From Nemertoderma westbladi (taxonomy: Eukaryota > Animalia > Xenacoelomorpha), in NCBI GenBank assembly GCA_032718475.1, contig JAUCBJ010000050.1, positions 50,448-114,447 of the forward strand: a stretch of 64,000 nucleotides of DNA. The letters are read 5' to 3'. Of this stretch, positions 12,121 to 48,642 are shown one piece after another (position 1 is the stretch's first letter; every line of letters begins with the position of its first letter). The position numbers and the translations under genes are program-made. The notes beneath the pieces were generated by a model. It searched no databases and was not told where the DNA came from. It saw only the letters and a list, made by a program, of their open reading frames with translations.

Positions 12121-13533
12121 ATGGCAACAAGCAATTCAAATTACATATCGGATGTTAAAGAAATAACGCAGAAAGTCAGTGAGAAACTTGTGCTGACTAA
12201 TGGGGAGCCTGAGGATTCCAGTGAATGGAAGAAAAAACTGAAACTTCCAAAAAAGGATCTTCGAGTAAAGACAGCCGATGTTACGGACACAAAAGGCAAT
12301 GATTTCGAGGAATACTGCCTTCGCAGGGAACTCTTAATGGGTATTTTTGAGAAAGGTTTTGAATCTCCATCGCCGATACAAGAAGAAGCTATCCCAGTCG
12401 CATTGAGTGGTCGCGATATTCTCGCTCGAGCTAAAAACGGAACTGGTAAAACCGCGGCCTACCTCATTCCTATGTTGGAGAAAATCGACAACAAAAACGA
12501 CGCGATCCAAGCGATGGTAATGGTGCCGACACGAGAGTTGGCCCTGCAGACAAGTCAAATATGCCGCGAGTTGGGCAAACACTTAAAGGTGCGGGTCATG
12601 GTGACAACAGGGGGCACCTCGCTCAAAGACGATATTATGCGACTCTACGACCCGGTTCACATAATCATAACGACACCCGGGCGCATTTTAGACCTCATGA
12701 GTAAAAATATCGCCAAGGCCGACAAGTGCAGCCTCTTAGTGCTTGACGAGGCCGACAAACTATTATCGCAGGATTTTAAAGGCCTTCTCGATAAAGTTAT
12801 CAGTTTTATGCCGAGCGGCCGGCAGATTATGCTGTTCTCGGCCACATTTCCCTTGACCGTAGAAGACTTTGCCGCTAAACATCTTAAGGATCCTTACGCT
12901 ATTAACCTGATGGATGAACTTACCCTTAAAGGTATCACGCAGTACTACGCGTACGTTGAAGAGTCACAGAAAGTCCGTTGTCTCAACACGTTGTTCGCCA
13001 AACTCCTCATCAATCAGAGCATAATATTCTGCAACTCGACAACTCGCGTGGAACTTCTCGCCAAGAAGATCACGGATCTCGGATACAGCTGCTTTTTCAT
13101 CCACGCGCGCATGGCGCAGCACCACCGCAACCGTGTGTTCCACGACTTCCGACAGGGGGCCTGTCGCAACCTCGTCTGTAGCGATCTCTTCACACGAGGT
13201 ATCGACATCCCCGCGGTCAACGTTGTAATCAACTTCGATTTCCCCAAGTACTCCGAGACTTACCTGCATCGTATCGGTCGGAGCGGCAGGTACGGCCACC
13301 TCGGCCTCGCCATCAACCTCATCACCAACGACGATCGAATCAATCTCTACAAGATGGAGCGCGAACTCACCACTGAGATTAAACCCATCCCTCGGGCCAT
13401 TGATAAGCGTCTCTACGTGGCCGAGTTCCAGACGCAGGATAAGTTTGGGGGCGGCGTTCCCCAGGGCGATAACGTAAACAACGCGGTGGTTGAAGGCGAC
13501 GTCGATGGAGTGGGCGATGCTCCAGTAAACTAA
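12121..13533 (+). CDS. DDX6: DEAD-box RNA helicase DDX6/Me31B/Dhh1, 470 aa, intronless CDS
   Basis: Q motif PSPIQEE, motif [38 protein letters not shown]; family-diagnostic [21 protein letters not shown]. Confidence 0.97.
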
Positions 13534-19500: not shown

Positions 19501-21075
19501 TTTCCTTAATATTGGGTGGCTTCCGTGACTTACAACCCGGATTCAACTTCATGGTATATTTGCTTTTGGGAATTTTTTAATTCAAATCACGTTTATTGGT
19601 ACTAACTCTAACCCAAAATCACAAATCCGAAAACCCATCTTGCATCTAAAATATCTCATCTAATTGTTAAATTCTCAATTAAGGGAAAGTAGCAAGTTAC
19701 ATACGGCCCAAACTCACAAAAAGTGGCCAAAAACGTTTCCCACACGATTCGACTTAATTTTAGAATGAAATTTTTTTTGGAACCTAGTTAAGTTATATAT
19801 ATTTTTGAAGATAATTTTATGGTCCAACAGATGCACAAAAAATCATAGTGCCACTCCGACTTTGAAAGATTTTACAGACCTTTTAGTACTAAAAATGCAG
19901 GTTTTTCAATTGTCCAAAAAAGTTCATTGTATTCTGGTTGATGTATTTTGACATCTACTGGGTGTATTTCAACAAGTTATAGCTCATTTTAAAGCTAAAT
20001 AATAGAGGAATGCAATGGAATAACTCCCAAATTGTTTTATTGATATCATATTTAAATAAAACAATAGATAATATACCCCTATTTTTGACAATTACTAGTC
20101 CCAAACGGTAACACCTGAATTCACCAAAAGGATTTTATTGGGATTCTATAAACTAAATTCTTATTTGAAAGGAAAATCTTCAAGAAGTGGAATGATCCAG
20201 ATTTTACGAAAAAATACTAAACACAACCGGAGATATGGCTGGTTTTATACGTGCGAGTCGATTATGTCAATTAGGATTGTCCCATGTGTAACACCAAGTG
20301 CACTGCTTTACCATGCTCTAGAATCAGTTCTAACAAACTTGATATGAAGATTCAAATATCAGAAGATAGCCAAGTTCTTGGTCTTTTGCGTGAGTAATCA
20401 TTTGTGGCAACAATTGACTGTGGAATAGACTTTAGTTGCTTTTACATTTATCAGCATGAGCTTTGTCCCACCTGTAACAAAAGCCTGTAACACAAAAAAT
20501 CGTTACAGGGCGGGACGTCCCACATGTAACATGTAAATCGAATAATTTTGGGCTACAGAGTAAGACATGTCTCACCTGTAACACTTTAGTAGTGCAGACT
20601 TCATAATATTGATAAGACTGTAGGTCATGCACACAGAACAGCACTATTAACTGTGAATTGGTACTTACCTACCTACAGTAGTACCGGTAACAGTATCAGT
20701 GCTGCCTCTTTATTGCGTTTGATTCGAAGTTATTGGATCTACAGATCTGCGCAGTGCATAGAGTTTACTATTGACTACTAAACAAACTAATCCTAACCAG
20801 AACCAGTTATAAGACATTGATGCAGACACTATGTGACTACGGTATAGAATAGAGACCACATTTCATTACTTATTAGGCATCAGCTTGCCGTTCCGGTATC
20901 AAGATACTGATAGTAAATAAAAATAGGACTAATAATACTGATCTGTCTTATATGGAATGCGGTCCATCTTAGATCTATCTTCTGCGATTGGGAGAGGGTG
21001 ATTGGGAGCTCCGTGAGGGGAGCAGTTAGAGGTGGGAGGGAAAAAAATAGAGGTGCAAGGGGAGCAGTTAGAGGT

Positions 21076-22245
21076 TGTTCGCGCTTTTAGACCTTTAGCA
21101 GTTTAACCTGCCAAATTGGGATGTCTTCTAGATAATGAATCGTCTTTAGCCTATGACGAGTATTTGATACACTACATTAGCCGAAGCCAGTCTATGCGCG
21201 ACCATACACCCGCTGGATATACCCGGGAGACTGGATTCGGAAGCCTAACCTTATTGCGGTGTAGGCCTACTGTATTATTCGACTGATCGTAATATATATA
21301 ATCTCTGACAAATATTATTCACTTTCGGGAAATATTAACAGTTCCTTTAGGACGTGGCGCTCTAAATATGTAAACAGAGTTATGACTTAAACTAGACACA
21401 ACGGGATGGCTATAGATTCACGTATATGGCGCATTCTTTAGGAGATGCTTTGTTATCAGTCACAATCATACATAATACTGCACAATGCTGCACACCGATC
21501 TGCCGACCTTCACTAATTTTAGTCACATATAAAGAGAACAACAACCAATACATGTAGTGCCTATGAAATAGCATTAGATTCACTTCAAAACCACTTTAAT
21601 GTAAGTCGCAATCGTTATATGTAACCGGTCCCTCTTACCTTCAGTATATCAAGAAGATTGAGGGTTTTATGATTAATTTATCGATATTCTCCAATATAAT
21701 AATATTCCATCAACTGATACAATGAATAACCGACAGTAAATAACAGTGCAAATGTTAAGTTAAGTTTGATATTAATTGAATTGTGGTTTGGTAACAGATA
21801 TACGTTCTATAATTAAGCCTACTAATGTTGGGCTAAAGACTGAAAACACAGAGATTCCAAAAGCCGGTCTTCTGGGCTCAGGACAAAATGTAAACATTGA
21901 CCCATAATGCATTGCGCGATTTCCCGGAGGTTTCTGTACAAAAAGCAGGAGAATCGCTCTGATTGGTTGACCAAACAAAGAAACACCAGAGAACAAGGAA
22001 AAAGCTACATGTGTACAGCTCAGCTGTTAGCTGTCGTCATAGTAACTACACTGTTTCAAGAGGATCTAGCGCATTGCGTCATAGAATTGCTAATTACGTC
22101 CGCTAAAGTAAACATACAGAAGAAATGGCTTTTTATGTCCCCTAAAACACCAGTACAGTAAGGATACGGCTTTTTATGCCTGTTAAACCAACTACAGAGT
22201 ACTTTACGGGGAAAATAACCGGCTAATTCCGCAAAAGCTTTTACA
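21076..22245 (-). repeat. 3' LTR of the outer element (1170 bp)
   Basis: Matches 48643-49815 with about 12 substitutions and one 3-bp indel by eye; preceded on the minus strand by the PPT. Confidence 0.95.
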
Positions 22246-22253
22246 CCGCTCCC
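22246..22253 (-). promoter_or_regulatory. Polypurine tract of the outer element
   Basis: GGGAGCGG directly abuts the 3' LTR on the minus strand. Confidence 0.75.
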
Positions 22254-22323
22254 AGAAAATGGGATTTAAGTCTATAAAATATAAAAAATCACAGTTTCTA
22301 AAATATAAAAATACTCTAAACAG

Positions 22324-23671
22324 TTAGTCTTTCTTATGCGGACGGCGTTTACGCAGTTTTTTGAGGCTAGCAAGAGTCCTTTTCTCTTTGGGGCGAGCCA
22401 CTTTACTAGGAGGGCTGTAACTCCTGGGTGAAGGGTGCAATACAATTGCATCAGAAGGTTTAGGATTACGATCGGTGTATCCGCCAGTCGAGGTACCTGG
22501 TTGATCGATATCAACTTCAGTGGAGCGAGGTCTAACGGCCTTTAGGGCGCGTCTTAGGACAGCAGCTCCTACGGGTCCTTGACGGGTCGTCTGGACAATA
22601 GCGGTAGGTGGACCGTGAGTGGTGAGAAACTTCCTCGGTTTAATGGTTCTTTCCAGCTCGCGTTCTCGGGCTCGATATTCGTAGGGCCGTCGAGATACTT
22701 CTTGTAACTCAGGGTGCGAGTTGATAAATAAATCGCCATACTCAGGGTCTTGACGGATGAAATTGATCAAATGGTATGAAGTAATATCGTTAGGATTGAC
22801 GTTCCTGAGATATTTTCGAACAAATTTGGTGGAAATACACTCACCAACACGCTTCATTAGTTCGTAACTCGGTGTGCGTGTTTTTTGTTCAACAGACGCG
22901 AATAAATAAGGATGGAACGTGTAAACTCCCTCGTAAGAGCGTCCAGGGTAATAGCGATGGCGGGACTCACAATGTAAATCCGCGTTCGCTTCCCAAGCTC
23001 GGATGTAGCGCAGGGTAATCATCTCATCTACGCTTTCTAAATCGTGGTTAAAGGGGCAATTATAACTGGCATGTCCTTTAAGTTGACAGTGGTGGCATTG
23101 AGTCATAAATTGGGGGCAGACTGCAAAAATGTGCGAGTTATTAAGTCTGCAATATGCACAATAGATCTCCATCATCGGTTGTTCGTGGAAATAGGAGCAG
23201 GGTACGTCTGAGTCCATAGGGGTGAAATGGTCTCTCGATGCGCATAATTGACAACGTTTTCGAGAAACATAGTTGGCGTGTCGATAATCGTATGCGGTGA
23301 GACATTGTGGACCTTGATACCACTCCAAGACGTAATCGTTATCGCTGCTCCGGGGCGCTGTAGGCTGGATCGCCTCAGATTCTAAGCATATTGGTTCGTC
23401 TTCCAATTGCATAGCTGAGGTAGGTGCGGCTGTCTCCGCAAGCGGACCCACTGTCTGAACTTCCACGACAGAATAACCCGTGGGTATTCGGGGTCTTTGT
23501 ATAACAGATGAATGTAAGTTCTGTATACAAACGTCCTGGAAAAGGGCAAATCCCGCGCTGTTTAGCTTCTCCGCAGCTGAGTCTCTTAGGCTGAGTTTGG
23601 TCAGAGCGCGGTCCTTGAACTGACTATCAACATTACGGAACGGAGTCAGAAAGCACCTGAAACATTCGAAG
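22324..23671 (-). pseudogene. 3' part of the outer element's accessory gene (Cys/His zinc-binding region, basic tail), split by the nested insertion
   Basis: CQLC..H, CAYC....H....C, CHHC...GH....C motifs; joins 35070-35497 in frame when the insert and one TSD are removed (..HNKFIR|FECFRC..). Confidence 0.85.
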
Positions 23672-23676
23672 CGGAT

Positions 23677-25177
23677 TGTTGCCGTTATTCCTACACCAGG
23701 GGGAAAAACGCCGATGCTGGAGACGTGACTTAACAGACCACCGAGCCCCGGCCAGTCACCGGATATTGATTGTGGGGAGGGAATATTTCTAAGATGCAAG
23801 TTTGCGGTTGAGAAAAGCTGCATTAGTTGGATATACTCTTTAATGTAACTTCCTATAGTTGAAAACCTGTTGAAACCTGATTAAGAATAATTTTGGGCTT
23901 CCCCAAATCAATATACACCAAATATTCACAATAAGTATACACGATAATATAAATCCCTACGGTATATTATTTAATAACCCGCTGTTCGCTCAGAATTTTA
24001 GCCTACCTAATGTTCCCCAGATTTTCCCTCAGTCCCAGTCTTAGTGCCGTAGTGTCGGTGTCGGTCGACCCTGTCGCGTGTCCGTTCCACCCCTCACGAA
24101 CCCCGAAGGGAACGATCATCGAGAACCAGCACGGCTTGGCTAAGGGTCGGTCCAGTCGGTAGACTCTGTCGCGTATCCGTACCACCCCTCTCGAACCCCG
24201 AAGGGTTCGGTCATCGAGAACCAGTACGGCTTGGCTAGGAGTCCGTCAGTTCATCACAGAAACCCAACCACCTAGGCTTTCCGAGTCCTTTTCAGGCTCG
24301 TAGTCGCTTCGGCAGCCGAGAAACTGCTCCGAACAGTCGGTAGGCCAGTAGAGTCTAGTCGAGTCTAGTCCTTTGTCTTTCGACCCCATCGCGTGTCCGT
24401 TCCACCCCTCACGAACCCCGAAGGGAACGATCATCGAGAACCAGAACGGCTTGGCTAAGGGGTCTGTCGTCGGTTCCCGTCGCGAATCACAGTCAAGCAG
24501 TCAGCGTTCCGAGTCCTTTTCAGGCTCGTAGTAGCCGCAGTTGACCCGAGACCGCTAAGGGCAGTCCTTGTCAAACCAGTCCTGTGGCCAGCCCTTTCGC
24601 ATGTCCGTCCCACCCCTCACGAACCCCGAAGGGATCGGTCATCGAGAACCAGTACGGCTTAGGTCAGGGGGCAGTCTTAAGTTGGCCACCTGTTCGCGTG
24701 TCCGCTCCACCCCTCACGAACCCCGGGGTTCGATCATCGAGACCCAGAACGGCTTGGCTACTAAGGGGCCGTCGGTGCCCGTCGCAAATCCCTGACACAA
24801 GCAGTCAGCGTTCCGAGTCCTTTTCAGGCTCGTAGTAGCTGCCGTTGGCCAGGGACCGCTAAGGGCAGTCCTTGTCCTTTAGGCCTGGCGCATTACCAAA
24901 TCCACCCCTACAGGCAGCAGGAAGTTGGCCAGGGCCTAATAGTACTCAGGCTAACCTGAATACTGCTTGCATTTTCCATCCCCCCTGGCCCTTATAACTA
25001 TGAAATTATTCCCGTACCCTGTAAGTTGCCCCAAAGTTCGCCCATAAATCGCCCCCAGTTTAATGAATGTGCCCAAAACCCATGGTCCCGCACCCAGTAG
25101 TAATATCGGAATAATCAATTTTAATAAAATACAAAAATATTCAACTCGCGTTATGGAAAGTTGAAATACCGCGAACA
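23677..25177 (-). repeat. 3' LTR of the nested element (1501 bp)
   Basis: Matches 33569-35069 at offset 9892; only one mismatch seen (25013 vs 34905). Confidence 0.95.
24060..24840 (-). repeat. Array of structured-RNA repeats in the nested LTR (5 K-turn-like hairpins and 3 GAAA hairpins); second copy at 33952-34732
   Basis: Recurring (+) motifs CACCCCTCACGAACCCCGAAGGG..CG.TCATCGAGA.CCAG.ACGGCTT and TTCCGAGTCCTTTTCAGGCTCGTAG, separated by variable sequence. Confidence 0.85.
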
Positions 25178-25187
25178 GTCCCCCCCA
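25178..25187 (-). promoter_or_regulatory. Polypurine tract of the nested element
   Basis: TGGGGGGGAC abuts the 3' LTR on the minus strand. Confidence 0.85.
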
Positions 25188-25343
25188 ATGACCTTCGTGA
25201 AGTCTGTCGGTCGATTGAGTTTGCGTAGGTCATTCCCAATATAAAAAAAAATCCCAAATTTAATATTGCATAGTTTTAATTAATATGGCCTAGAGTTTGT
25301 ATAAATAAATGTTCGATAAATGTTCCTGGAATATCCCAATCCA

Positions 25344-27944
25344 TTATTTCTTTTTCTGGTACGCCTTCCGTCTCTTCGCCCGTCGACTCTCATCGATCGC
25401 TATGGCTGGTAGAGGAGCGTCAACATCCATCGTGAGTAACGCTTCGGCTTGTCTCCTGGCGGCTCTTCCTTTCGAAGGCATCGGGATCATGTCGGTTCGT
25501 CTTTCCAACTCGGAGTTGCGTGCCTCTAGGAACCATTCTCCGTCACCGAACTCCTCTTTATACGAATATAATCGTCTAATAACTTCGAATGGACCGAATA
25601 ATCCGGCGCTCAGTAGCAGATCCACGTAATGGAAGGGTAGCGAGGCCGACGTGTGGAGGCGTTCCGGGAAGGAGAAATATCCGCACGCCATCTCCTGCGC
25701 GATATTCCGAGCGTTTCTCCGAAACTTGGTCTTTAAATGGCTGTTTGCGTATGTCTCAAACATGACCATATTGCCCATAGCGGTAACGTCTTTGGTTGGA
25801 CATTTAATATAGCAGCGGGGGCTAGCGGAATGTCCACGGAAACCGCACGTGGTGCAGAGGTTATAAAGGATCGGACAGACCGAAACGTCGTGGCCCGATA
25901 TCGCGCAGTATGGGCAATAGAGTATCCCAAGGAGCTGGAGGCAAGAATCGGTAACCCGATTCCTTCTGCTGCGTGGGCACTGCTCCGAACCGCAGTCGTC
26001 GCATACCTCCAACTGCATCTCCCGACCGGGGAATATCGGAATAGGAACGCCGGCGTAGTATTCGAGTCGTCGGTCGCTCTTCGGAATATTCTCGGTGGTC
26101 GGTAGCCCGCGGAATGCTGGGCTCTTGCGTAGTATGTTTTCGCTCCGATAACCCTCTTTATGTCCCGATGGTCTCAACTCGGACGACCGTTTCTGGCGGT
26201 GGATCCATTCAGTTTGCTCGGCGTACCAACGGGTTAGTCGCATAGGGTCCTGAGGAACGGCGGGTGTAGTAGCTACCGCTGGTCGGCGAAGAGGTGCCGG
26301 GGTTTTCGACGGAGGGATACCGAGGAGATCATCGGGTGTCGGCGCATCGCTGGGTCCCTCCTCGACCAGTATCGCTGAGCGGGTCCGTAGGTGGCTGGTA
26401 CTCGGGATCTCCGACGACCAATCTTCGCCACCCGGGAAAGGATACGGGGATAACCGTTGGCATATGTCGCCGAAGTCGCTCAATGCAGCCGTAGTGGCTA
26501 CCTCTCTCGCGGGGCTACCGGAGCCGCGTGGGGTGTAGACGCCTGCTCTCTTTATCGGTTCGGCCGAGGCAACCCGTTTGGCGGCCGGTCCGTACGCGGC
26601 CTCCGGTTCGAGTTGTCGCTTCGGGGTGGAGAGTAGAACACCCTCGTTTAGCCATATCTCTTCCCCTTCCGAGGAGATCAGCGGCTCCTCCGCACCGAGA
26701 AGTTCGGTAATCGTAGGGATATCGTAAGGTCCGCTCTCGTCCCAGGATTCGATAATGGCGGGCGTTTTCGATTCTCCCGGTGTAATGTTCTCGACCGCTT
26801 TAAACGCGTGGTTTATAACCTCGTTCCAGTCGTAGTCGACGAAGGAAAGGGGGGCCACCTTGATGAGGTTATCTAGAGTCTTGCAGATAAACTTAGCGAC
26901 GGTGTAGCATTCCATAACGACGTAGATATAGCTCCGTCGATCGGGATTCTCCCACCTTTGGTGTATCGTCCACTTCCGATCGACGTCCTTCCATCGACCC
27001 TCTCGCTCGCTCTTTATCTCTAATCCCGGGTATCCGCCGTATATTTTATTATAGTCCCGGAATTTCTGGGGTTTGAAGTCGATACCGCCGTTGAGCACAG
27101 CGAGGTAGCCGATCCCGGATTTCGTCGGTCTCACTTCTTGGAATCCTCGCATGAACTCGGCGAATCGTAACCAGGCTAGCAGCGTTTGAGTATCGATGCA
27201 ATGGCTAAGTGCGTTGAGGTCGTTTCGTCGGTTTCTTCCTGCGGGAGCGTTCGCGTAATCGTTCCGGACGTCCGCCTTGATATCCGACCCGATTTTAATG
27301 ACGTCGAAGTCGAAGAGGATCTTTTGGATATCCGTAGGCAGCAACCAGATCGCTCCGGCTGCCTGCACTTCATGTCTGGGTGTCGGGAATATTCGGCACA
27401 CCAGTACCAAACCATCCAGGGTTCCGAGGACGACGACTAAGGATCGACCGTATTCTTTCGCCCCGTACTTTTCCTGGTAGTCGTCGCGGTTTTGGATAAT
27501 CGATACGCGTTCCTCTCGAAGCGTCGCCGTACACTCCGACAGGTTTCCCCAGTGGGCGAGGTACGTACTCTTGTCGTCGACGAAACTCTGACATCTCGCC
27601 AACGTAATCGCCTTCGAGGTGGGCGTCGCGTTTCCCTCGTTGTCGTAGATCAAACATCGGGATCTGTAGACGCTCTGCCGGAACGTTTCCCAAAACGACG
27701 AATCGTCCCCTCCGGTTGCCTTTGCGTTCCGAGTCCTTTTCAGGCTCGTAGTAGCATCGGCTAACCGGAGGGCTCGTAGATTCTTAGAATCCGGTCCCTC
27801 TCGCCCGGTGAATTTAATTTCTCGTACGTTCTCATTTAGCAGAATGTTCCAATTTGTATCAAAGTCAGGGGATCCGGGTTGCGAATATTCCAGTAGATCT
27901 ACCGTGTTACGTAATTCGCCGATAATTTGGCGATTTGGGTCCAT
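25344..27944 (-). CDS. Accessory protein of the nested element, 866 aa: DEDDy/WRN-like 3'-5' exonuclease-like region, disordered linker, Cys/His zinc-binding cluster
   Basis: LPTDIQKILFDFDVIKIGSDIKAD, CIDTQ, SGIGYLA and W.......YVVME resemble the ExoII-ExoIII region of WRN/EXD nucleases; CDDC, CPYC...GH....C, CTTC...GH motifs; intact ATG-started ORF. Confidence 0.75.
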   Translation of the reverse strand: MDPNRQIIGELRNTVDLLEYSQPGSPDFDTNWNILLNENVREIKFTGREGPDSKNLRALRLADATTSLKRTRNAKATGGDDSSFWETFRQSVYRSRCLIYDNEGNATPTSKAITLARCQSFVDDKSTYLAHWGNLSECTATLREERVSIIQNRDDYQEKYGAKEYGRSLVVVLGTLDGLVLVCRIFPTPRHEVQAAGAIWLLPTDIQKILFDFDVIKIGSDIKADVRNDYANAPAGRNRRNDLNALSHCIDTQTLLAWLRFAEFMRGFQEVRPTKSGIGYLAVLNGGIDFKPQKFRDYNKIYGGYPGLEIKSEREGRWKDVDRKWTIHQRWENPDRRSYIYVVMECYTVAKFICKTLDNLIKVAPLSFVDYDWNEVINHAFKAVENITPGESKTPAIIESWDESGPYDIPTITELLGAEEPLISSEGEEIWLNEGVLLSTPKRQLEPEAAYGPAAKRVASAEPIKRAGVYTPRGSGSPAREVATTAALSDFGDICQRLSPYPFPGGEDWSSEIPSTSHLRTRSAILVEEGPSDAPTPDDLLGIPPSKTPAPLRRPAVATTPAVPQDPMRLTRWYAEQTEWIHRQKRSSELRPSGHKEGYRSENILRKSPAFRGLPTTENIPKSDRRLEYYAGVPIPIFPGREMQLEVCDDCGSEQCPRSRRNRVTDSCLQLLGILYCPYCAISGHDVSVCPILYNLCTTCGFRGHSASPRCYIKCPTKDVTAMGNMVMFETYANSHLKTKFRRNARNIAQEMACGYFSFPERLHTSASLPFHYVDLLLSAGLFGPFEVIRRLYSYKEEFGDGEWFLEARNSELERRTDMIPMPSKGRAARRQAEALLTMDVDAPLPAIAIDESRRAKRRKAYQKKK

Positions 27945-28498
27945 ATTTACGATTATATCCGTTACAAATTAGTTCAGTTAATTATAAGTCCAGAAAGTCT
28001 GAAACTATAGCGATAGCAGAATAATTCAGTTTTATTTTTAGTACAGTTTATTAATAACATTGCTATATAGGCATCTATCATCTTATTGCTAATACATTCA
28101 GCATTTACAGTTGCTATAACTATACATTAATATCCAACCAGTTTTTTATGACTTTTTTGTCCTTTTTTTTTCCAATTCTTTTCTTTGACCTCTTTTATAC
28201 CTTTTTTTTGTCTTTTTTCATTTCATTATTATTTCATCTCATTTCATTTATTTCCACATATATTTCAACATTTAGTTCCACCATTTATTTCACATTTATT
28301 TATTTCCACATCATCATTGGGTTTATAGCCCCCCGGCTATCATCATTGGTTATAAGCGCAGCACCAGGGTGCGCATCATTACATTTTCATCAGTATACGC
28401 GTCATCATTCAGGTTTATAGCAGAGTTGTCTGATCCTTTTCATCATTTCCAACTATATTGAATCATTTTCTTTGGTTAATCTTTGTCGTGGAAGGGGT

Positions 28499-28909
28499 GT
28501 TACGCGGCAATCTGGGATCTACAGCTGGACTCGTTACACCGCCTACGCCCCAAACTGCGCACGTAACGGACAATGAAGACGCTAGGAGTGAAGTCACGTG
28601 GGTGCACCAGGGACCCACCAGAATAACACTCCCAACAACATAAAGCTCAGTCGACGAAGTCATGTGGGATGGGGTTACGCAACATTCTGGGATCTACAGC
28701 TGGACTCGTTACACCGCCTACGCCCCAAAATCCACGCAACGGTCCCACCAGAATAACGCGACTGAGAAACATAAAACCCTCTATCGTCGAAGTCACGTGG
28801 ATGCACCATGGACCCACCAGAATAACGGGATAGAGGGGGTGTTGCGCGGCAATCCGGGATCTACAGCTGGACTCGTTACACCGCCTACGCCCCGAACTGC
28901 GCACGCAAC
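28499..28909 (-). repeat. Three-copy modular structured repeat between the two ORFs of the nested element
   Basis: Invariant 38-nt (+) core GGGATCTACAGCTGGACTCGTTACACCGCCTACGCCCC x3; second motif GAAGTCAYGTGG...CCCACCAGAATAAC x3. Confidence 0.85.
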
Positions 28910-29188
28910 GGACAACATAACATACTGCAATGAATACAATGAATTCCACTTCAAATCTTTTCCATTTCTAATAATCCAATATCGTAGGTCCTGATGACCA
29001 AAATCAGGGTAAACAATGCATAAACGACCCTGCGTCAGTCGAAACATCTGCAGGGTGATGCTGGACTCCACATAACACACGAGGAAACACAAATACCATT
29101 GCGTGGTTACAGTTGGTTTAAGGGGGGTCCATAACTCGTTGTCGATAAATCACAGTTAAAAGGAGTTTGTCAACATGATGAGAAGGGT

Positions 29189-32100
29189 TTAAACGCATTT
29201 GTAATTGTCACCAATGTCCACAGTAGGATCCGTAGGGAACTTATTACCTCTTGTAGAATCACCACTGTCATTGCCTTCAAGAAGGCACAGCTTCTGGATG
29301 GGGCGTTGGTAGTGGCCCGCTTTCGTTCGTATCGTCACAGTCCTCGCAAGTCCGTCTTTGCTTGGGTGTATGGTCACGACCCGCGCCACAGGCCAGTGAA
29401 CGCGGTCTTTGAGATCTTCTCTAACTAGTACCATGTCGCCAACTGCGACGTTCCGGTGGGTGTTGTTCCATTTCCTCCTGGTCCGGAGGGTTATGAGATA
29501 TTCCTGGGCCCAAATTCTCCACCAATGCGCTGCCAACGCTTGGGCCTTTTTCCAGTTTGTATGCTTCGCGATCTCGTTGGGATCCGGGAACATGGTTTCT
29601 GGGAGAACGTGGGTTTTGGGTCTCCCCAGTAGGTGGTTAGGAGTGAGGGACTCAACTGAGGCGTTCGCCATCCGGGTATTACGGCAGATTAGTCCATGCT
29701 CTCCCATTAATGGTGTCAATGTTATCAACATCATTATTATCATCAACAACCTTATTATCCACCAAAGCATGGGTACGCGCCAATGTCCGTCTTTAAACGT
29801 GGCCTGGTCGAGAACGTCCATACAATATTGGTCCTCTTCGGATGGGTTTTCGTCCTTTTCCGCGAACTCCTGGGTCTCCAAATTAAAATATTTCGTCATC
29901 TCTCGTTGGGTTTTCTCTGTTTCCAGAAACAAATCCTCGTCAAGATCCGAAACTGAGCAATAACCCACAGAGGTTACATTCTCTTTAATCTGACATTTAG
30001 GAAGGTAGGTATAGGTGTCCGTAGTTTCCTCCTTAATGCCGCAGAGTGTCCATCCCATTATTGTTCGTTCAGCATAAAATCCGTCATCCTGATTTATAGA
30101 TCGGGCGATATCTCCGGTGGGGATGTGTAGTTCCGGTGTATCAAGTCCGATCAGTAGGGTGATACGGTTTACGTCCAACTGCGGACACCTCAGGTCTACA
30201 TCGTCCCGGTCCAATTGTATGAGGGGGGCGTACTCGGCTGATTGTCGGAACCGCACCCGGAGGTCTGTGTGTACCAAGGCGTTCTTTATGGTTAACTTAG
30301 CCGTTTCGTAGCCCTTCATCACTCCTTCCATCTGGAGTTGCACCTCCCCGGACTCTACCTCTCTGTTATCGGTGATGGTTTGTATGGGCCGTTTGCAAGG
30401 CTCATATTCTAGGCCGAGTTGCTCGAGGAAATCCCGGTCGATGATGGTTCCGTCGGACCCGTTATCGAGGAATGCGAGTGTCGTCAAAGATTTGCCGACT
30501 CCTTGGATCCTTACTGGGATTACCTTTGCGAAAACCATGTAGCGGCGATTTATAAGATTAATCGTGGCCGAAATATTTGTTACTTGTGGTGTAGCGGTGG
30601 AGATTTTAAACGGGTTGGTTTCTCTCCGTTGGGTTGTCCGGGTTCCTTTGAAGATGTGGTTTGTTTCTCCTCTTCGCCTGGCTTCGATCCGAAAGGGGAG
30701 GGTAGTAAAATCGAAGTTCGCGGGGATGTGGAGGAGCGTGTGATGGCGTTGGTCGTTACAGACAGTACAGCATGATCTTTGGTCGCACTCCCGAACATAG
30801 TGACCTGTTCCAAGACACCGGAAGCATCCTCGGTGTTTCATTATCGCCTCGAAGCGTGGGACGAGTTCGGCGAACTGAAACTTTCTGCAGAATTCCACTT
30901 TGTGTTTCTCCCCACAGAAGAGACATATAGTGGAGGCTGTGGTGCCTTCCCTTTCGGGTGCCCAATTCGCTAGGTAGCATGCCCATTCTTCTGCTAAGGT
31001 CGGTTCCTCGTAATCCTCGTCATCCGAGTCCTCAGCCATACTGATGGCCATCGCACTCACAGGAGTAGGGCGGAATCTTGGGTTTGAAGTGGGTGCCCTG
31101 CTCTGGTAATTGCTCTCCATTGCGTCCAACTTGGCGAGACTTTGTTTCGAGAACATCGAGTCATTCATGGCTTCGGAGATATCGTCCAGGAATGCCGACA
31201 TTTCGAGGAAGCTGGGATCTTGATCTGGATGTCTGCGCCGGAGATCTACGCATTTATAGGCCCACTTACTTTGCAGCCATCCGGGGAACTTCCGGGCGAT
31301 CTGTCGGAGGTTTAGAATGTTGTTCACCTGGTCCTCCTTATTTAAGGGTTTCAGAGTGTAGTAGGCATCCTTCATGGAATCTGAGAAATCCTGGAGGTTC
31401 TGTGGGTCCCCTAGTGATCCCGCGTCTTGTATCAGTTTCTCTAGAGTTTTATTAATTATAGTTCCGGTATTTCCGTATCTTTTATCTAGAGTTTTCCATG
31501 CGTCATAGTATGCCTCATGAGAACCTCCCTCAAAACATGCAACAATTCTGCGTGGTTTGTCACCCAGGTATTGCGATAAATATACCAATTTCTGTGCGTC
31601 GGCTATGTCTGTTGATCCGATCTGCGCAAAGAACCGTTTCTTGAATCTGAGGTAATCGACGGGATCTCCTTCGAAGGTGCGAATCTCCATCTTCGGCATG
31701 GCAAGGCGGTTCTCCAACGCCCGGATGATGCTGACGTCGTCTGAACTAGAGTGACTCGGAGGGTTATAGTTATTGGCACTCACTCCCATACTTGATGGAT
31801 CAATAATAGGTGGAGTTTTAATAATGACGCGGCTACGAGTTTGTGGTGTCGATGTAAACGGGTTATTTGATCGGGGAGTGGCGTCCCGTTCCGAGTCCTT
31901 TTCAGGCTCGTACTTGGGTACACTCGCTGTCGTGGTGTTGGATGGGAAATAAGGTTCCTCATTCTTTAGCGTAGCTGGTGGGGGATGGAACACCGGGGCT
32001 TGTGCCGATAGCGTAGACTGTTTGGTGGGCGGGATCTCGGGTTTCAGAGGCTTCGCCGCTGTTGGTGTAAATGACTTTTCTAACTCCGGTACCGGAATTG

Positions 32101-33046
32101 GTTCATATTCCTGATCTATATCCCTTTCCCAGTCCTCGTAGAGTTGAATATCTCGTTCTATAAGTGCGGCTTCATATTCTGCGAGTTTTGCAATATCCGC
32201 ATTCTTTTTGTGGATGAGAATTGCTTGGGCCTCGGCGTGTTGTTTACGCATTTCCGCTTCCCATTTACGTTGTTCGATCTCTCGTTCGGCCTCTCGTCCG
32301 CGTTGTTCGGCCTCTAGTCTATGTTGTTCGGCCTCTAGTCTATGTTGTTCGGCCTCCTGTTCGCGTTGTTCGGCCTGCCGTTCGGCCGCTTGTTCGGCCT
32401 CTCGCTTTTGTGTCTCGGCGGCTAATACATCTTGCTCGGCTTGCAGTTGAATATACTCATCTTCCATCCGAGCTTTGAGGGCTAATGCCTTCCGTTCTCG
32501 CAGTTGGTCTCGGAGTGGCGGCGCCCCTTGAGAACTGCGCGCTGAGCCGGATATTTCGCTCCTAGCGCTGGAGTGCTGATCTCTAACGGACCCCGTTCTC
32601 TTTCGATGTACTGCTGTCCTGATGCTGGAGGATCGTACCGATTCCGCATCTGTTCTTTCAGCCCTCTTGTAGTACTGTTCCTCATAGCCTCTCACAAGGC
32701 TGAGGGTCCTCCGGTGTTGTTTGCGGAACCCATCTAGATGTACAACGTGTTCTTCCAACTTGGGGTAGTTTTCCAGATCGGTGGGGGGAACGAGCTCTTG
32801 GTACGCCTGTATCATTCTTTCGTACCGCTGTAGGATATTTCGGATACTTTGAAGCTGAGTTTGTACCTCATTGAGGGGGGTTTTGACTCCCTTGAGTTGT
32901 TTCTCCATCCATTGATACGCTCGGGTTACTCTGCCTTTAAGAGCCCCTAACCGACGGGTCATGTTCTTGACGTTTGGTACCTCGTCGGCTTCCGAGTCTG
33001 TGTGGTGATCCATCTCGTCGGTATCGGATACGTTATTTGTGGTCAT
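29189..33046 (-). CDS. BEL/Pao Gag-protease fused to the integrase C-terminal (DUF5641-like) region, 1285 aa; RT, RNase H and integrase core absent
   Basis: DUF1759-like TFEGDPVDYLRFKKRF; three zinc knuckles (CLFC..H...C, CFRC...GH....C, CTVC...HHTLLH); protease AFLDNGS; DGHWRVPMLW followed about 40 aa later by LTPNHLL...GDMVLV...W..ARV...DGLAR. Confidence 0.9.
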   Translation of the reverse strand: MTTNNVSDTDEMDHHTDSEADEVPNVKNMTRRLGALKGRVTRAYQWMEKQLKGVKTPLNEVQTQLQSIRNILQRYERMIQAYQELVPPTDLENYPKLEEHVVHLDGFRKQHRRTLSLVRGYEEQYYKRAERTDAESVRSSSIRTAVHRKRTGSVRDQHSSARSEISGSARSSQGAPPLRDQLRERKALALKARMEDEYIQLQAEQDVLAAETQKREAEQAAERQAEQREQEAEQHRLEAEQHRLEAEQRGREAEREIEQRKWEAEMRKQHAEAQAILIHKKNADIAKLAEYEAALIERDIQLYEDWERDIDQEYEPIPVPELEKSFTPTAAKPLKPEIPPTKQSTLSAQAPVFHPPPATLKNEEPYFPSNTTTASVPKYEPEKDSERDATPRSNNPFTSTPQTRSRVIIKTPPIIDPSSMGVSANNYNPPSHSSSDDVSIIRALENRLAMPKMEIRTFEGDPVDYLRFKKRFFAQIGSTDIADAQKLVYLSQYLGDKPRRIVACFEGGSHEAYYDAWKTLDKRYGNTGTIINKTLEKLIQDAGSLGDPQNLQDFSDSMKDAYYTLKPLNKEDQVNNILNLRQIARKFPGWLQSKWAYKCVDLRRRHPDQDPSFLEMSAFLDDISEAMNDSMFSKQSLAKLDAMESNYQSRAPTSNPRFRPTPVSAMAISMAEDSDDEDYEEPTLAEEWACYLANWAPEREGTTASTICLFCGEKHKVEFCRKFQFAELVPRFEAIMKHRGCFRCLGTGHYVRECDQRSCCTVCNDQRHHTLLHIPANFDFTTLPFRIEARRRGETNHIFKGTRTTQRRETNPFKISTATPQVTNISATINLINRRYMVFAKVIPVRIQGVGKSLTTLAFLDNGSDGTIIDRDFLEQLGLEYEPCKRPIQTITDNREVESGEVQLQMEGVMKGYETAKLTIKNALVHTDLRVRFRQSAEYAPLIQLDRDDVDLRCPQLDVNRITLLIGLDTPELHIPTGDIARSINQDDGFYAERTIMGWTLCGIKEETTDTYTYLPKCQIKENVTSVGYCSVSDLDEDLFLETEKTQREMTKYFNLETQEFAEKDENPSEEDQYCMDVLDQATFKDGHWRVPMLWWIIRLLMIIMMLITLTPLMGEHGLICRNTRMANASVESLTPNHLLGRPKTHVLPETMFPDPNEIAKHTNWKKAQALAAHWWRIWAQEYLITLRTRRKWNNTHRNVAVGDMVLVREDLKDRVHWPVARVVTIHPSKDGLARTVTIRTKAGHYQRPIQKLCLLEGNDSGDSTRGNKFPTDPTVDIGDNYKCV

Positions 33047-33417
33047 TGTAATGCCTCGTCGATGGCGAGATACGCGATGTCGTAAAACAGTTCCTCGTAG
33101 GTATTGTACTCAGCTTGGACCACCCGAACAGTAATCCTGAATCGTCCAACGTTCGTTCCTTGTACCTCAACTTCGACGTGCCAGATTCCTGGCTCAACTT
33201 GAATTATATCAATGGGTGTGATCGATACTTCTATTCCCTGTTAACAACTCTCCCGAATTGTGATCTGCCGACTACGAGTTGGTTAGATCGAGTTTGTTGT
33301 TTAATTAAACCACGACTTTGTCTCAACTCAAATACCAGAGTTTCCTCGTAGTGGGTGCTGGCAAGCACGTAGAGAGTTTTTGAAGAGTATTGAAGGATTC
33401 TCAACTTCCACCAGTTG

Positions 33418-33568
33418 AAGTTGACCGTAATTATCCTTAATTTTGACACCGTGTCAAAATTAACCGCATTAATTATTCTTAATTTTGACACCCCGTCAAA
33501 ATTAACCACGTGAATTATTCTTAATTTTGACACCCGGTCAAAATTAACCATATAATTATTCTTAATTT
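33418..33568. repeat. 42-bp tandem repeat of palindromes next to the nested 5' LTR
   Basis: TTAATTTTGAC-N5-GTCAAAATTAA at 33437-33463, 33479-33505 and 33521-33547. Confidence 0.85.
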
Positions 33569-35069
33569 TGTTGCCGTTATTCCTACACCAGGGGGAAAAA
33601 CGCCGATGCTGGAGACGTGACTTAACAGACCACCGAGCCCCGGCCAGTCACCGGATATTGATTGTGGGGAGGGAATATTTCTAAGATGCAAGTTTGCGGT
33701 TGAGAAAAGCTGCATTAGTTGGATATACTCTTTAATGTAACTTCCTATAGTTGAAAACCTGTTGAAACCTGATTAAGAATAATTTTGGGCTTCCCCAAAT
33801 CAATATACACCAAATATTCACAATAAGTATACACGATAATATAAATCCCTACGGTATATTATTTAATAACCCGCTGTTCGCTCAGAATTTTAGCCTACCT
33901 AATGTTCCCCAGATTTTCCCTCAGTCCCAGTCTTAGTGCCGTAGTGTCGGTGTCGGTCGACCCTGTCGCGTGTCCGTTCCACCCCTCACGAACCCCGAAG
34001 GGAACGATCATCGAGAACCAGCACGGCTTGGCTAAGGGTCGGTCCAGTCGGTAGACTCTGTCGCGTATCCGTACCACCCCTCTCGAACCCCGAAGGGTTC
34101 GGTCATCGAGAACCAGTACGGCTTGGCTAGGAGTCCGTCAGTTCATCACAGAAACCCAACCACCTAGGCTTTCCGAGTCCTTTTCAGGCTCGTAGTCGCT
34201 TCGGCAGCCGAGAAACTGCTCCGAACAGTCGGTAGGCCAGTAGAGTCTAGTCGAGTCTAGTCCTTTGTCTTTCGACCCCATCGCGTGTCCGTTCCACCCC
34301 TCACGAACCCCGAAGGGAACGATCATCGAGAACCAGAACGGCTTGGCTAAGGGGTCTGTCGTCGGTTCCCGTCGCGAATCACAGTCAAGCAGTCAGCGTT
34401 CCGAGTCCTTTTCAGGCTCGTAGTAGCCGCAGTTGACCCGAGACCGCTAAGGGCAGTCCTTGTCAAACCAGTCCTGTGGCCAGCCCTTTCGCATGTCCGT
34501 CCCACCCCTCACGAACCCCGAAGGGATCGGTCATCGAGAACCAGTACGGCTTAGGTCAGGGGGCAGTCTTAAGTTGGCCACCTGTTCGCGTGTCCGCTCC
34601 ACCCCTCACGAACCCCGGGGTTCGATCATCGAGACCCAGAACGGCTTGGCTACTAAGGGGCCGTCGGTGCCCGTCGCAAATCCCTGACACAAGCAGTCAG
34701 CGTTCCGAGTCCTTTTCAGGCTCGTAGTAGCTGCCGTTGGCCAGGGACCGCTAAGGGCAGTCCTTGTCCTTTAGGCCTGGCGCATTACCAAATCCACCCC
34801 TACAGGCAGCAGGAAGTTGGCCAGGGCCTAATAGTACTCAGGCTAACCTGAATACTGCTTGCATTTTCCATCCCCCCTGGCCCTTATAACTATGAAATTA
34901 TTCCTGTACCCTGTAAGTTGCCCCAAAGTTCGCCCATAAATCGCCCCCAGTTTAATGAATGTGCCCAAAACCCATGGTCCCGCACCCAGTAGTAATATCG
35001 GAATAATCAATTTTAATAAAATACAAAAATATTCAACTCGCGTTATGGAAAGTTGAAATACCGCGAACA
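33569..35069 (-). repeat. 5' LTR of the nested element
   Basis: Near-identical to 23677-25177; starts TGTTCGCG and ends CAACA on the minus strand. Confidence 0.95.
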
Positions 35070-36680
35070 CGGATGAATTTATTGTGTTCATCTAGCTTGG
35101 TGAGTTTGGTTCCAAGTATTAAGGGATGGGCGCGGATGGTACGACTGCACACATCGGCTAGCCAACCGGCAAGTGCTGCGTTTTCAAAGATCGTGTATAT
35201 AGCTAAGGAGTGACGAAGTGGAACACTCATAAAGCTATACACGGCGCCAGGTGCGGTCAATGGTCCATCAAAGTATAAACGAGAATAATGATCTCCATAT
35301 ACTTGTTGGTAATTGATAGGATTTCCAACCTTGAAATTCCATCCGTATTCTTGAAAGGCAAGATGTCCGATGGAGGTTCGTTGTACTTTAGTAATGCCGC
35401 TGGGTGTATTGGCATACATAGTGCGGAAGAAACCTCGGCCTTCTGCCCAGGGAGCAATCAGCTGAGTATCAACGAAAGGGTATGGAATGTTCTCCATGTT
35501 CCCGTCGTATGCCTAATATGTTCTCCGACAGCGATGGTAGAGCAGAGGAAAAACTATTTCGCATTCTGAAATATTCAGAAATACGATCTCAGTAGGAGGA
35601 TTCAAACGTTCGAAGACTATCTCCAAATGAATTTATCCCCAGTGATTAGGGGGTGAACAACCAGATTTATGACACATAATGGTACCAGTTGTTCACAGAC
35701 TATCCACGTGTCCTTTTAGTCCTTGAATCACGGTTGTGGACTTAAGGAAATTATTGGTGGTTGATTATCTAATCAACGACAAGAGGGTGGAAGTTGATAT
35801 CATAAATATCAACAGAGTGTGACATGGACAGGAGGTGCGGACACCAATATGAGCATCCAGATTAATAGTAAGGGATGGGAGGTTTATTAAGAGGCGGTAT
35901 GTTCAATACCACGATACGGCAATGATCGGTCGATCGTCTCCCAAAGCTCCGAGCGCGTTGGGGAGAGAAGGTGGGATGAAGTATGTTGTATTTTCAATAG
36001 CGATGTATAGAGGGATAAGGGAAGTAAAGAGGAGGGAGGATATATGGTAGTATCCATAAGATACCACAATGGACATGTTTTCTGTCACGTCATCATTCAT
36101 TCTTGCCTTTTAATTGTGACACTGATCACAATAATTGCAGGAAAACGATGAAGGAAGAGAAAATTACAGCCTCCCGAAGGAGACCGCCCGCGAGCACCCG
36201 TGCCCCGGGGAAAACTATTCACATTATGGACCCTGGACATTAACCCATGTCTCTTCTCCAGTGGTTCTCCTCTATTTGTCTTTACAAGCCTTCTTCCACG
36301 TTCTATCTTTCGAGTTGATTTCGAATAGAATTCTCATTTTCTATTCTCGGTTTATCGTTCCGACTCCGCTGGGTATGATATTTAAATAAAACCATTTCCC
36401 TTTCGGTGTCTACATCATCCGTATCGTGTAAATCGATAGGATGGCCAGTAGTTAAGAAGTCCATATACGTACCATTACGATACGTATAGCGAGCGGTGAA
36501 CTTTCTATAATCCAATTCACGCGTAAATTGCTCCGGGGACATTGGCGGTTCGATATAACGACCATCATCCTCTGTAGTAGTTGGACCAGCGTCGCCGCGT
36601 ATCAAGCTATCGACATACGCTTGTAAAGGTAGAGTATATCGCTCCCTGATACCAAGATCATCTTCTATCAACTCAGTCAT
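35070..36680 (-). pseudogene. 5' part of the outer element's accessory gene (exonuclease-like region), decayed
   Basis: FVDTQLI...TSIGHLAFQEYGWNFK in ORF 35033-35497 aligns by eye with CIDTQTL...SGIGYLAVLNGGIDFK of the 866-aa protein; upstream pieces 35903-36100 and 36303-36680 are separated by stops, so their membership is tentative. Confidence 0.6.
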
Positions 36681-40034: not shown

Positions 40035-40185
40035 GGATTTCCACTACAGACTTATTTGTGGCTGTGGGTTTCTGATCCAAAGCGTTGTCTCCGGAAGTAT
40101 GTAGTACAGACAGATCTACCATAGGTTTAAATAACTTCGATTTACTCGCCCGAGTTTTAGGTTTGACTTTCTCCGCTCCCTTGGC

Positions 40186-43100
40186 CTATCTGATCTCTGC
40201 CGTAGTAAGATGAGGAGGCCATTCTTCTTCTTCTTTGTAGAGGAAGTCGGGTCCACCTAACCAGTCTGGAGTATCTACCAGTTCTTGTGGAGTAGCTCCC
40301 CTGGAGGCGATGTCTGCTGGATTGATCGTTCCGGGGCAATGTCTCCATTGATCCATCTTCGTGCGACTAAGTATAATGGCTACTCTGTTGGTAACGAAGA
40401 CACTGAACTGACAGACTTCATTGGTTATATACTCCAACACGAGTAAAGCATCGGTCCAATAGACAGTTTTCTCCAGTGGATAGTCGATCTGTTCTGTTAC
40501 ATTCCGGCCGATGGCTGTAGCGTATAGAGCCGCTTTTAACTCCGCTCGAGGAACTTTCAACTTGTTGTTTATCAATGCCTTAGAGGTAACCAAAGCGACT
40601 TTGATTCCATCCGGAGTTTCCACTCTTAGGTAGGCTACTATACCTATTCCCATATCGCTGGCGTCTCCAAACACATGGAGTTGATAGGAATAAGTATGGA
40701 GAACATGACCAAAATATGAACGGGAAATTATAAAGTTCTCGATGGCTGGTAGAGAATCTTCCCATTTCATCCACTTCTTTAATAATTCTCCCTTAAGTGG
40801 ATCGTCCCATGAGTGGTTTTCAAGCCACATTTGTTGTACTAAACTCCAAGCAATCAATATAACTGGGCTAATAAATCCCAATGAATCGAAATAAGTGCTC
40901 AGGATACTTAAACAAATCCGTTTAGTCCGAACTGGATTATCTCGCTGTTTTAGCTGGAAAAACAGGATATCTCTCTCTGTGTCCCATTTCAAACCAAGTG
41001 TCTTGGTTTCTGGAAGATCATCTTTGATTAGATCTAGGTCTTTCGCTCCTCGATCTTCTACCGGGATCGACTCCAGAAACTCACGGGAGTTGCTGGTGAA
41101 TTTAGTTAATCGAAATCCACCTCTTTTTAAGCACTCTACCAGTCCTTTAGCGACATCAATGGCTTCTTCGACTGATGGAAGGGACTTTAGATTGTCATCC
41201 ATGTATATATCCCGTTTGATGTTGTCAATCACCTCTTTAGAGAAGGCTTCTCGGTTGTCATCCGCAGTGGTGCGCACCACTGAACAGGCGTTTGAAGGGC
41301 TTGAGATTATCCCAAAAGCCTGGATGGTCACCCAGTACTCCACCGGTTTCTGGTTGAGGTCTCCTTCAGGCCACCACAGAAATCGTAGGCTATCTCGATC
41401 CCTATCCAGCACCTTGACTTGTAAGAACATGCCTTCTATATCTGAGGCGAAAGCGATTGAATATTGTCTTAATCTTAAGAGTATTCCCAACAAGGATTGG
41501 AGTAAGTTGGGTCCGGTTAACAATTCGGAATTAAGGGATTGGCCCATGTAGAGTGCGGAGCCATCAAACACTACTCGTACCTCATGGGGTTTACCGGGTT
41601 TGGGAACGTAATGGTGAGTTAAATAATACGTTCTCTCAGTTATAGGTGTTTCTTCCAGTACTCGCTCCGCATATCCCTTGCTAATAAATTTCTTCAACTG
41701 CGTTTGATACATTTCTTTAGCTGAAGAATTTGCCATAAGGCGTCGATGTAGTTGAGCAATTCTTTTCTCCGCCAAGGGTCTGTTGTTTATGAACTTTGGT
41801 TCTCGTTTTCGGAAAGGTAGACCGATTTCATATCTACCTTGATCTTTAAGAAAACGTGTAGTTGTCTCTTGGATCTGCTTGGCTCTTTCTTCTTCTACCG
41901 ATAGGGCCTTATCGTAGGAATTGGGCTCTACAGCCTCTTGAGTAAAGAATCGTACGGCGTGTTCATCCCGAGTCTTGGCATTATAACGTTCAATGACGTC
42001 ATTAAGTTCGTCGTTATAGTCGTCTCGTTCTGATGGACGAAGGAGCTGACATAAGTTCACTTGGTTTTGCCAAGTCTCGTTTTCCTTAAGGAGATCAATG
42101 GTATTCTCCTCGTCGAAGAGTTGGTGGACATCGTCATTATCTGAGGAGTATGGTGTTCCCTCAGTTGGATCGTCTAACTCACTGCTCTCAACTTCCCAAT
42201 CTCTTACTTGATATACCTGATCTTTCGGTAATCTTTCCATGAGAGTTCTACGGGAAGGGCCAGTAAAGTACCAACCCACTCTAGTTCTTCCCGCATAAGC
42301 TTGTAGTGGTTGCGGTTGAGCAGGCCGTTTCTCCAATGTCTCGAGCGCCTCATGCGCATTTTGACCGATGAGTATTTGCACTCCACTGTAATCGGTGTTG
42401 AATCTAGGTATTTCAAGCTGCTGGGTGAAATCGTCCTCATCCCAGTTATAAGGTTCCACTTGGCTGGTAGCGAAGTTCTTTATCGCCACCATTTTTACTG
42501 ACCTTATACTATGTTCTCCTAGTTCATCCTGGGGGGTGGACAACGCACCTACATAATAATCCGCTATTACTGTAGATTTCCAAACTTGCATAATTCCTGA
42601 CATGTTTAGCTTAGTTCGGAACTTGGGTTGTCCAGCAAAGATGTCTTCGGCTAGTTCTTTGTCGATGAATGTTCCTGTACTACCGGAGTCAAGAAGGGCG
42701 TTCACTATATAACTCCTTTTAGGTCCGTGGACCCTTAACTGTACTACAGGAAATTCTCGGATTCCTACATTGGAAGTTGGCGCTTTCCAAAATGGTTGTC
42801 GATCAGAAGTAGTTAGGGTGAGGTCGCTGTCTGTGTCTTTTTCATACGTAAGTGCTCGATACACTGCGGTATTTATCATGTAACAGGATTCATCTTCGTC
42901 GGAGAATTCATCCGTATAGAATCCTTCCATCTCAGAACTTTGGTCAGTGTCGTTCACATCACTGAATTGGACATGTAGTTCGGAATCACTTACCTGACTC
43001 GGGCTGTTTCGTTCGAATTCAGTGTGCAACAAGATATGATGTTTCGCACCGCACTTTGCACACCTTGTGTCGGAGTAACAGGTTCGCCATTGGTGTCCTT

Positions 43101-48363: not shown

Positions 48364-48642
48364 GTGCAATCTGAGCAGGCTTACACGTCTTCTGCTCAAT
48401 ATTAACCTACAAATAAATAAAACTGACAGAAATAAGTAAAATCTCAATAAAAAACCAGGGCTGCAGTCCCTGATTAATTATTAAGGCCTACCGGTATATA
48501 ACTATCAAAATCGAATAATACTGCTGTACCTGTACTGCTGTAGGTACCGGTCCGGGTGGTTAGGTAGTCAGGCCTACTAGGTACCGGTTAACCGGTACTT
48601 CAGCTTTATTGCCTACCGCAATACAGAAGCTATATCTGTTAT

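Follow-up and report, generated by a model that had tools for sequence, protein, structure and literature searches.

What does a gene resembling a 3'-5' exonuclease do in the envelope (env) position of a retrotransposon? The question arises in a 64,000-nucleotide stretch from Nemertoderma westbladi (GenBank assembly GCA_032718475.1, contig JAUCBJ010000050.1, positions 50,448 to 114,447 of the forward strand; hereafter the window), where an inner BEL/Pao long terminal repeat (LTR) element carries a third open reading frame (ORF), ORF3, encoding protein P0001 (Table 1). Sequence comparisons indicate that ORF3 is very probably not an active nuclease and, much more tentatively, that its protein may be a dead enzyme serving as an adaptor that binds the element's own RNA, comparable to Rev or CERV, its most likely task being to export or protect the unspliced genomic RNA. 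We favour this reading because the catalytic residues have been lost while the zinc ligands are kept, because a candidate splice acceptor and a basic tail accompany the gene, and because Egalitarian and CERV provide precedents.

An earlier note on this DNA had described an intact ORF between the Gag-protease region and the polypurine tract, and we confirmed a stop-free frame there; chance at the local composition would give 866 open codons with a probability of about 2.5e-16. Since the upstream 1285-aa ORF ends in an integrase tail, so that ORF3 follows pol, this is a true third-ORF position. A low-complexity linker of 250 aa separates the exonuclease-like domain from the zinc-binding motifs, which were rightly noticed earlier and consist of a degenerate first knuckle without His (aa 648-668) and two CCHC knuckles, one matching C-x2-C-x4-H-x4-C exactly (aa 677-690) and the other an x5 variant (aa 697-711). 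The basic tail, a candidate nuclear localisation signal, is present also in homologues P0002, P0004 and P0006.

A full HMMER scan with ORF3 recovered seven homologues (P0002-P0008) at E<=0.001, with identities of about 21-28% in the alignment for five of them. All seven have up to three Cys/His knuckles and the conserved extension; the N-terminal domain is homologous by BLASTP in P0002, P0003, P0004 and P0006 and by weak alignment only in P0007, and the shorter P0005 and P0008 match ORF3 in the knuckle region only. A profile of P0002, P0003, P0004 and P0006, built without P0001, gives P0001 56.4 bits, whereas none of 200 shuffles scores above 0.4. The top sequence-profile match of the domain is Egalitarian (E 0.022), the top Foldseek row for ORF3 is Trypanosoma brucei RNase D (TbRND), and the closest structural relatives include the Egalitarian and Nibbler domains. 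The knuckles resemble those of retroviral nucleocapsid (P0002, E 1e-4), Lin28 and Air2, and the top ESM cluster for P0003, in which the knuckle module occurs twice, is euglenozoan PF01612 plus zf-CCHC (0.86). Word-index protein searches returned nothing for P0001 aa 60-400 or for one family alignment, and two known homologues only for another; phmmer of P0001 against the PDB gave a single chance-level row, and a viral structure library no match at E<=0.001. No related loci were found in metagenome contigs (protein and 24-mer searches) or in viral contigs (three of the eight family proteins searched).

The catalytic site speaks most directly to activity. ExoII and ExoIII are recognisable (Table 1), and the E in place of D in ExoIII recurs in P0002, P0004 and the outer copy of the gene described below. 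The ExoI DxE is absent from ORF3 in all three registers considered, which bears out the earlier suspicion of a pseudonuclease. The first strand and the beta2-beta3 turn lie 28 residues apart in P0001, against 47, 47, 48 and 77 in homologues, and BLASTP against P0004, the only homologue with which the register of this region is firm, places 10- and 9-residue gaps there. An alternative profile alignment sets D155 in the ExoI column, without the E and without a preceding hydrophobic strand. A further register, in which aa 146-153 would form the ExoI strand and both its D and its E would be replaced, was rejected, as it scores 1 with P0004, where the first-strand register scores 33; for the other three homologues the two registers are tied or unclear, and DxE is absent either way. 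ExoI contributes two of the four metal-coordinating residues of TbRND (PMC7797062). Since ExoI is lacking, ORF3 would fall outside the active DEDDy nucleases, and the primer-trimming role offered by the earlier note becomes unlikely. The ExoI D-x-E, ExoII D and ExoIII Y-x3-E are all present in P0002 and P0004, so activity may persist in part of the family; P0003 keeps the ExoI D and not the E, and P0006 has no clear DxE. A deletion private to this copy was rejected: a 1104-nt contig from run X4 spans the site gap-free, and four runs drawn from three samples list no indel between 26700 and 27950 (24 of 160 contig loose-end rows listed), so the loss appears family-wide. In one low-depth contig this site is shorter by another 33 nt.

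Variation among copies suggests that the gene has been maintained. Thousands of contigs from three studies map to this abundant element family (9010 in run X1 and 4393 in run X2). The 54 distinct ORF3 variants listed comprise 29 synonymous and 25 other changes, against 24-29% synonymous expected, with a non-synonymous to synonymous ratio (pN/pS) of 0.27-0.34; they stem from 19 of 40 listed rows in one listing and 40 of 40 in a second, with 5 in common and 577 and 159 further rows unlisted, and the count is crude, using best-supported rows and taking sites singly. Without the low-depth cluster at 26976-27010, whose 13 rows include one change that would be a stop if read alone, 24 of 41 are synonymous (pN/pS 0.22-0.28). 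Within the exonuclease-like domain 16 of 31 listed variants are synonymous (p 4e-4 to 7e-3), and in the gag-protease ORF 6 of 13 (pN/pS 0.33-0.44, three filler rows excluded). Of the best 12 of 54 indel rows along the element, none falls in ORF3. The synonymous excess points to selection on ORF3 and not to the neutral evolution that would have told against the earlier proposal. Broken copies do exist, since two X4 joints skip parts of ORF3.

A candidate RNA target is an identical 24-nt word with eight exact copies in the window, all within the inner element. Each LTR has three, and gag and ORF3 have one apiece, the two coding copies differing in codon phase. On the element strand, all five distinct contexts share a minimum-energy core in which an outer stem leads through a 5x4 internal loop to a bulged-A stem closed by a GAAA loop; their z-scores of -2.9, -2.9, -4.4, -6.8 and -1.75 beat the opposite strand in four of the five. 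Two of the three outer-stem pairs have changed on both sides and the seven inner pairs are invariant; the covariation score was attained by 5 of 500 shuffles, the structure having been named from these same folds, and with five related rows it is suggestive only. The internal loop reads AGUA/GAA in the gag copy and ACUA in the other four; the former is a sarcin-ricin (loop E) motif sequence, and ACUA is not among the motif sequences given in the available part of that source (PMC1865062). An Rfam covariance search of 20900-36000 gave two chance-level rows, neither on the stem-loop, so assignment of the hairpins to a known ribozyme family is unsupported. Each LTR also holds five copies of another structured repeat, about 90 nt long (24060-24770; 33950-34660); on the element strand it folds into an extended stem that is interrupted by an internal GA-rich bulge and capped by UUCG, with double changes in 3 of 26 pairs. 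It has no Rfam match and may recall a kink-turn.

The host of ORF3 is, judging by its Pfam domain set, a shortened BEL/Pao element. Its 1285-aa ORF matches DUF1759, zf-CCHC, Asp protease and DUF5641, of which DUF1759, the aspartic protease and DUF5641 are presumably BEL/Pao markers; no Pfam match to reverse transcriptase, RNase H or the integrase core was found in this ORF, so the inner copy lacks what defines an autonomous BEL/Pao element. The gap maps near 29650-29780, where about 130 nt of filler stand in frame for most of pol. Since contigs of runs X1, X2 and X4 also carry this filler, the shortened form is not confined to this assembly; contig loose ends reveal other copies with different sequence on either flank of the gap. 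BEL/Pao elements have been described from animals only (PMC2774666), which by itself would make an animal host likely. The LTR pair differs at 1 of 1501 bases, and this near-identity, together with the target duplication and the purine tract, argues for recent insertion. A three-copy repeat lies between pol and ORF3 (28480-28920), with a run X4 depth roughly tenfold that of ORF3. Immediately behind the LTR, the 5' leader (33430-33565) contains three to four near-palindromic units of 41-42 nt, and inspection by eye of this leader, where a tRNA-complementary primer-binding site is expected, spotted no clear one.

The inner element is inserted within an older BEL/Pao element, into the latter's own homologous, broken third ORF. 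This outer element has a Peptidase_A17 Pfam match as well, and its damage comprises a single stop at 44413 between the first ORF and the next, breaks near 40040-40186 and the decayed ORF3. Because its third ORF is homologous, two diverged BEL/Pao families of one genome carry this type of ORF after pol; genomic context was established for the inner and outer ORF3 copies. A G-rich tandem repeat borders the outer element on both sides (49800-51000; 21016-21075), which suggests insertion into a minisatellite. Elsewhere in the window are an uninterrupted 470-aa ORF for a DDX6/Dhh1/Me31B-type helicase (12121-13533), either an intronless host gene or a retrocopy, and a satellite of 19-nt units (54850-58500; at least 182 overlapping windows).

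Table 1 Features of the inner and outer elements, in window positions.
Feature	Position	Strand	Remarks
Inner BEL/Pao LTR element	23677-35069	minus	carries ORF3 as its third ORF
5' LTR, inner element	33569-35069	minus	1501 bp; TG...CA ends
3' LTR, inner element	23677-25177	minus	1501 bp; TG...CA ends
5-bp target duplication	23672-23676 and 35070-35074		borders inner element
Polypurine tract	25178-25186	minus	read directly; abuts 3' LTR
1285-aa ORF	29189-33046	minus	gag-protease joined in frame to integrase C-terminal tail; Pfam matches
ORF3 (P0001)	25344-27944	minus	866 aa, ATG to stop, no internal stops
DEDDy-like domain, ~aa 137-370	26835-27536	minus	four-homologue profile; weak Egalitarian/EXD2 matches
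Region matching ExoI of homologues	27445-27510	minus	~19 residues shorter in ORF3, without DxE
ExoII motif KIGSDIKAD, aa 217-225 (D225)	27270-27296	minus	aligns with conserved motif of homologues
ExoIII motif YVVME (Y341-x3-E345)	26910-26924	minus	aligns with conserved motif of homologues
Zinc-knuckle module and conserved extension, ~aa 648-777	25614-26003	minus	one degenerate, two CCHC
Basic C-terminal tail	25347-25385	minus	candidate nuclear localisation signal
Candidate splice acceptor	27999-28004	minus	~55 nt ahead of ORF3 start
Stem-loop in ORF3, from codon 65	27707-27770, core 27727-27750	minus	z -6.8
Stem-loop in gag, from codon 379	31869-31932, core 31889-31912	minus
24-nt core copies in 3' LTR	24279, 24507, 24811	minus
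Outer BEL/Pao element	21075-49815		LTRs 21075-22245 and 48642-49815, 98.7% identical
Outer ORF3, exonuclease-like piece	35075-35512	minus	matches P0002 (E 1.8e-6); profile match; broken upstream
Outer ORF3, remainder with knuckle module	22324-23671	minus	knuckle region matches P0001 (E 3e-4) and P0003 (E 2.5e-9)

How might a dead exonuclease serve the element? As an adaptor, ORF3 would be produced from spliced RNA via the acceptor at 27999, and its basic tail would carry the protein into the nucleus; there the knuckles would read unpaired bases and the dead domain would touch the stem, so that several bound copies could license RNA export or shield the RNA until Gag packaging. Among the four functions offered earlier (anti-silencing factor, RNA adaptor, primer trimmer, hairpin binder), an RNA-binding adaptor or hairpin-binding role appears to fit best. 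It is conceivable, though we hold it doubtful, that BEL/Pao elements have their own Rev/RRE-like pair, with a captured exonuclease as knuckled RNA reader, a cognate GNRA-capped, loop-E-like stem-loop in the LTR, gag and the reader gene itself, and active and dead versions within the family.

Several observations weigh against the adaptor reading. A pattern search of the 5' leader for splice donors returned none, donor-like words occurring only within LTR repeats, and the hairpin, present in ORF3, the LTR and gag, would also be on spliced RNA and is not a unique mark of unspliced RNA. The outer element has no comparable motif common to LTR and interior, gag's own knuckle could be the hairpin reader, and loss of a central strand could destabilise the ORF3 domain. 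The fold itself is likely and not certain: the DEDDy/WRN-like assignment of the earlier note stands insofar as several searches converge on a DEDDy (Egalitarian/EXD2/RNase D) fold and its KIGSDIKAD and YVVME motifs align with homologues, but each match is below its own significance threshold, and the Pfam check that it had suggested gave no exonuclease (PF01612) match for the ORF3 protein. The structure model is poor (mean pLDDT 48; 31 without alignment), and in VIA-align four helical decoys outrank the exonuclease rows.

Alternatively, the dead domain might be an anti-silencing decoy that mimics EXD1, Nibbler/Mut-7 or Egalitarian, or that coats element RNA or piRNA precursors, with the hairpin incidental or a landing site; two of these proteins are among its closest structural relatives, inactive DEDD derivatives act in piRNA biogenesis (PMC5408684), and the family is very abundant in runs X1 and X2, but a letter-for-letter hairpin in two coding regions suggests a cis signal and not general suppression, and we consider such a decoy unlikely. 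Equally, the resemblance of the tandem knuckles to retroviral nucleocapsid and the survival of the hairpins, the open gag-protease and ORF3 where most of pol has gone, as for cis packaging signals, would suit a second nucleocapsid-like cofactor, a cytoplasmic packaging, chaperone or transport adaptor taking hairpin RNA to Gag or motors. Since Gag has its own knuckle, the basic tail would suggest nuclear import, and no LOTUS-like or coiled-coil adaptor matched in the Pfam scan, this too strikes us as unlikely.

An active 3'-5' exonuclease, trimming element RNA, primers or small RNAs as trypanosome RNase D does, would need D154, D155 or E158 to replace ExoI. Retention of D225 and Y341/E345, the profile that sets D155 in the ExoI aspartate column, the complete motifs of P0002 and P0004 and the domain order of TbRND would allow it; the missing DxE and ~19 residues, the lack of a hydrophobic strand before D155 and the weight of ExoI in the TbRND metal site (PMC7797062) make it highly improbable. 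Nor do we expect, except at a small probability, that ORF3 is a functional accessory protein with a non-element target such as host RNA or chromatin, or that its exonuclease-like part is now a spacer and the knuckles alone matter: two of seven homologues (P0005, P0008) match in the knuckle region only and the outer element lacks a common motif, yet the exonuclease-like domain has its own synonymous excess (16 of 31 listed) and no small indel listed in four runs. Scarcely credible is an envelope gene or a neutral passenger. Its env position, hydrophobic aa 168-186, four furin-like basic words and the copies deleted through ORF3 invite that view, but this stretch, the peak hydrophobic 19-mer (Kyte-Doolittle 2.08; the five top windows all fall within aa 165-188), is modelled as a beta-hairpin and aligns to the conserved beta2-beta3 hairpin of Egalitarian and EXD2. 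As the earlier note held, ORF3 is not env: read directly, its N-terminus is not hydrophobic, and a hydropathy scan, with no dedicated predictor used, found no signal peptide with C-terminal membrane anchor. Zinc knuckles are intracellular modules, and the variant pattern (pN/pS 0.22-0.34 among listed variants) together with the homologues largely refutes this view.

Comparison with known systems draws on material outside the earlier note, which lacked the rotifer DEDDy ORF3, the trypanosome RNase D order, the outer homologous ORF and the hairpin in ORF3. The bdelloid rotifer elements Juno, Vesta and Athena/Terminons carry a DEDDy third ORF of unknown function (PMC5408684; PMC6431247), likewise a separate ORF in env position without transmembrane segments. 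Compared by description only, the rotifer catalytic residues are intact (DEED), whereas here ExoI is lost, ExoIII is YxxxE, a knuckle module is attached and the host is BEL/Pao; the available part of the rotifer paper lacks the word CCHC, notes a Cys-His-Cys motif in two families, and reports no significant departure from neutrality (PMC5408684), in contrast to the synonymous excess here. TbRND shares with ORF3 an exonuclease domain followed by tandem CCHC fingers, an order its authors call very unusual, but TbRND is cellular and active, and about 28 aa link its domain to four fingers (PMC7797062), against 250 aa and no ExoI in ORF3; the common order may be convergent. The exonuclease-homology domain of Egalitarian contacts RNA stem-loops, its catalytic residues lying ~15 A away and unused in binding; Egalitarian relies on LOTUS-like domains, XAD and BicD (PMC13186709), for none of which did the Pfam scan give a match in ORF3. 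CERV of the C. elegans element Cer1 is an LTR-element accessory protein required for unspliced RNA export, and similarly combines a Cys finger with an enzyme-like domain for which no activity is expected; that domain is G-protein-like, so the likeness is a functional analogy and homology is not expected, and HIV Rev/RRE, as described in the same paper, is a further analogue (PMC10309623). Dada DNA transposons are also mobile elements with a captured DEDDy exonuclease, but within the transposase and with all four catalytic residues retained (PMC3706591).

What exonuclease-type third ORFs do for LTR elements has been a question ever since the rotifer report, which gives no activity or target in its available part (PMC5408684). 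This family brings together natural variants that differ in whether they retain the catalytic motif and a candidate RNA target of ~35 nt, a combination open to direct test. If the binding is real, Rev-like control would have arisen independently once more, and it would be a caution against taking every BEL/Pao ORF in env position for an env gene; a true Rev/RRE-like pair would be an example of an enzyme turning RNA adaptor inside a retrotransposon. In the literature searched, mostly titles and abstract openings and excluding supplements, Repbase and most subscription papers, we found no BEL/Pao ORF with DEDDy domain and knuckles, ExoI loss or a cognate hairpin. Thus DEDDy third ORFs in rotifer LTR elements and the exonuclease-plus-CCHC order are known already, and what is apparently new is the dead, knuckle-fused version in a BEL/Pao element.
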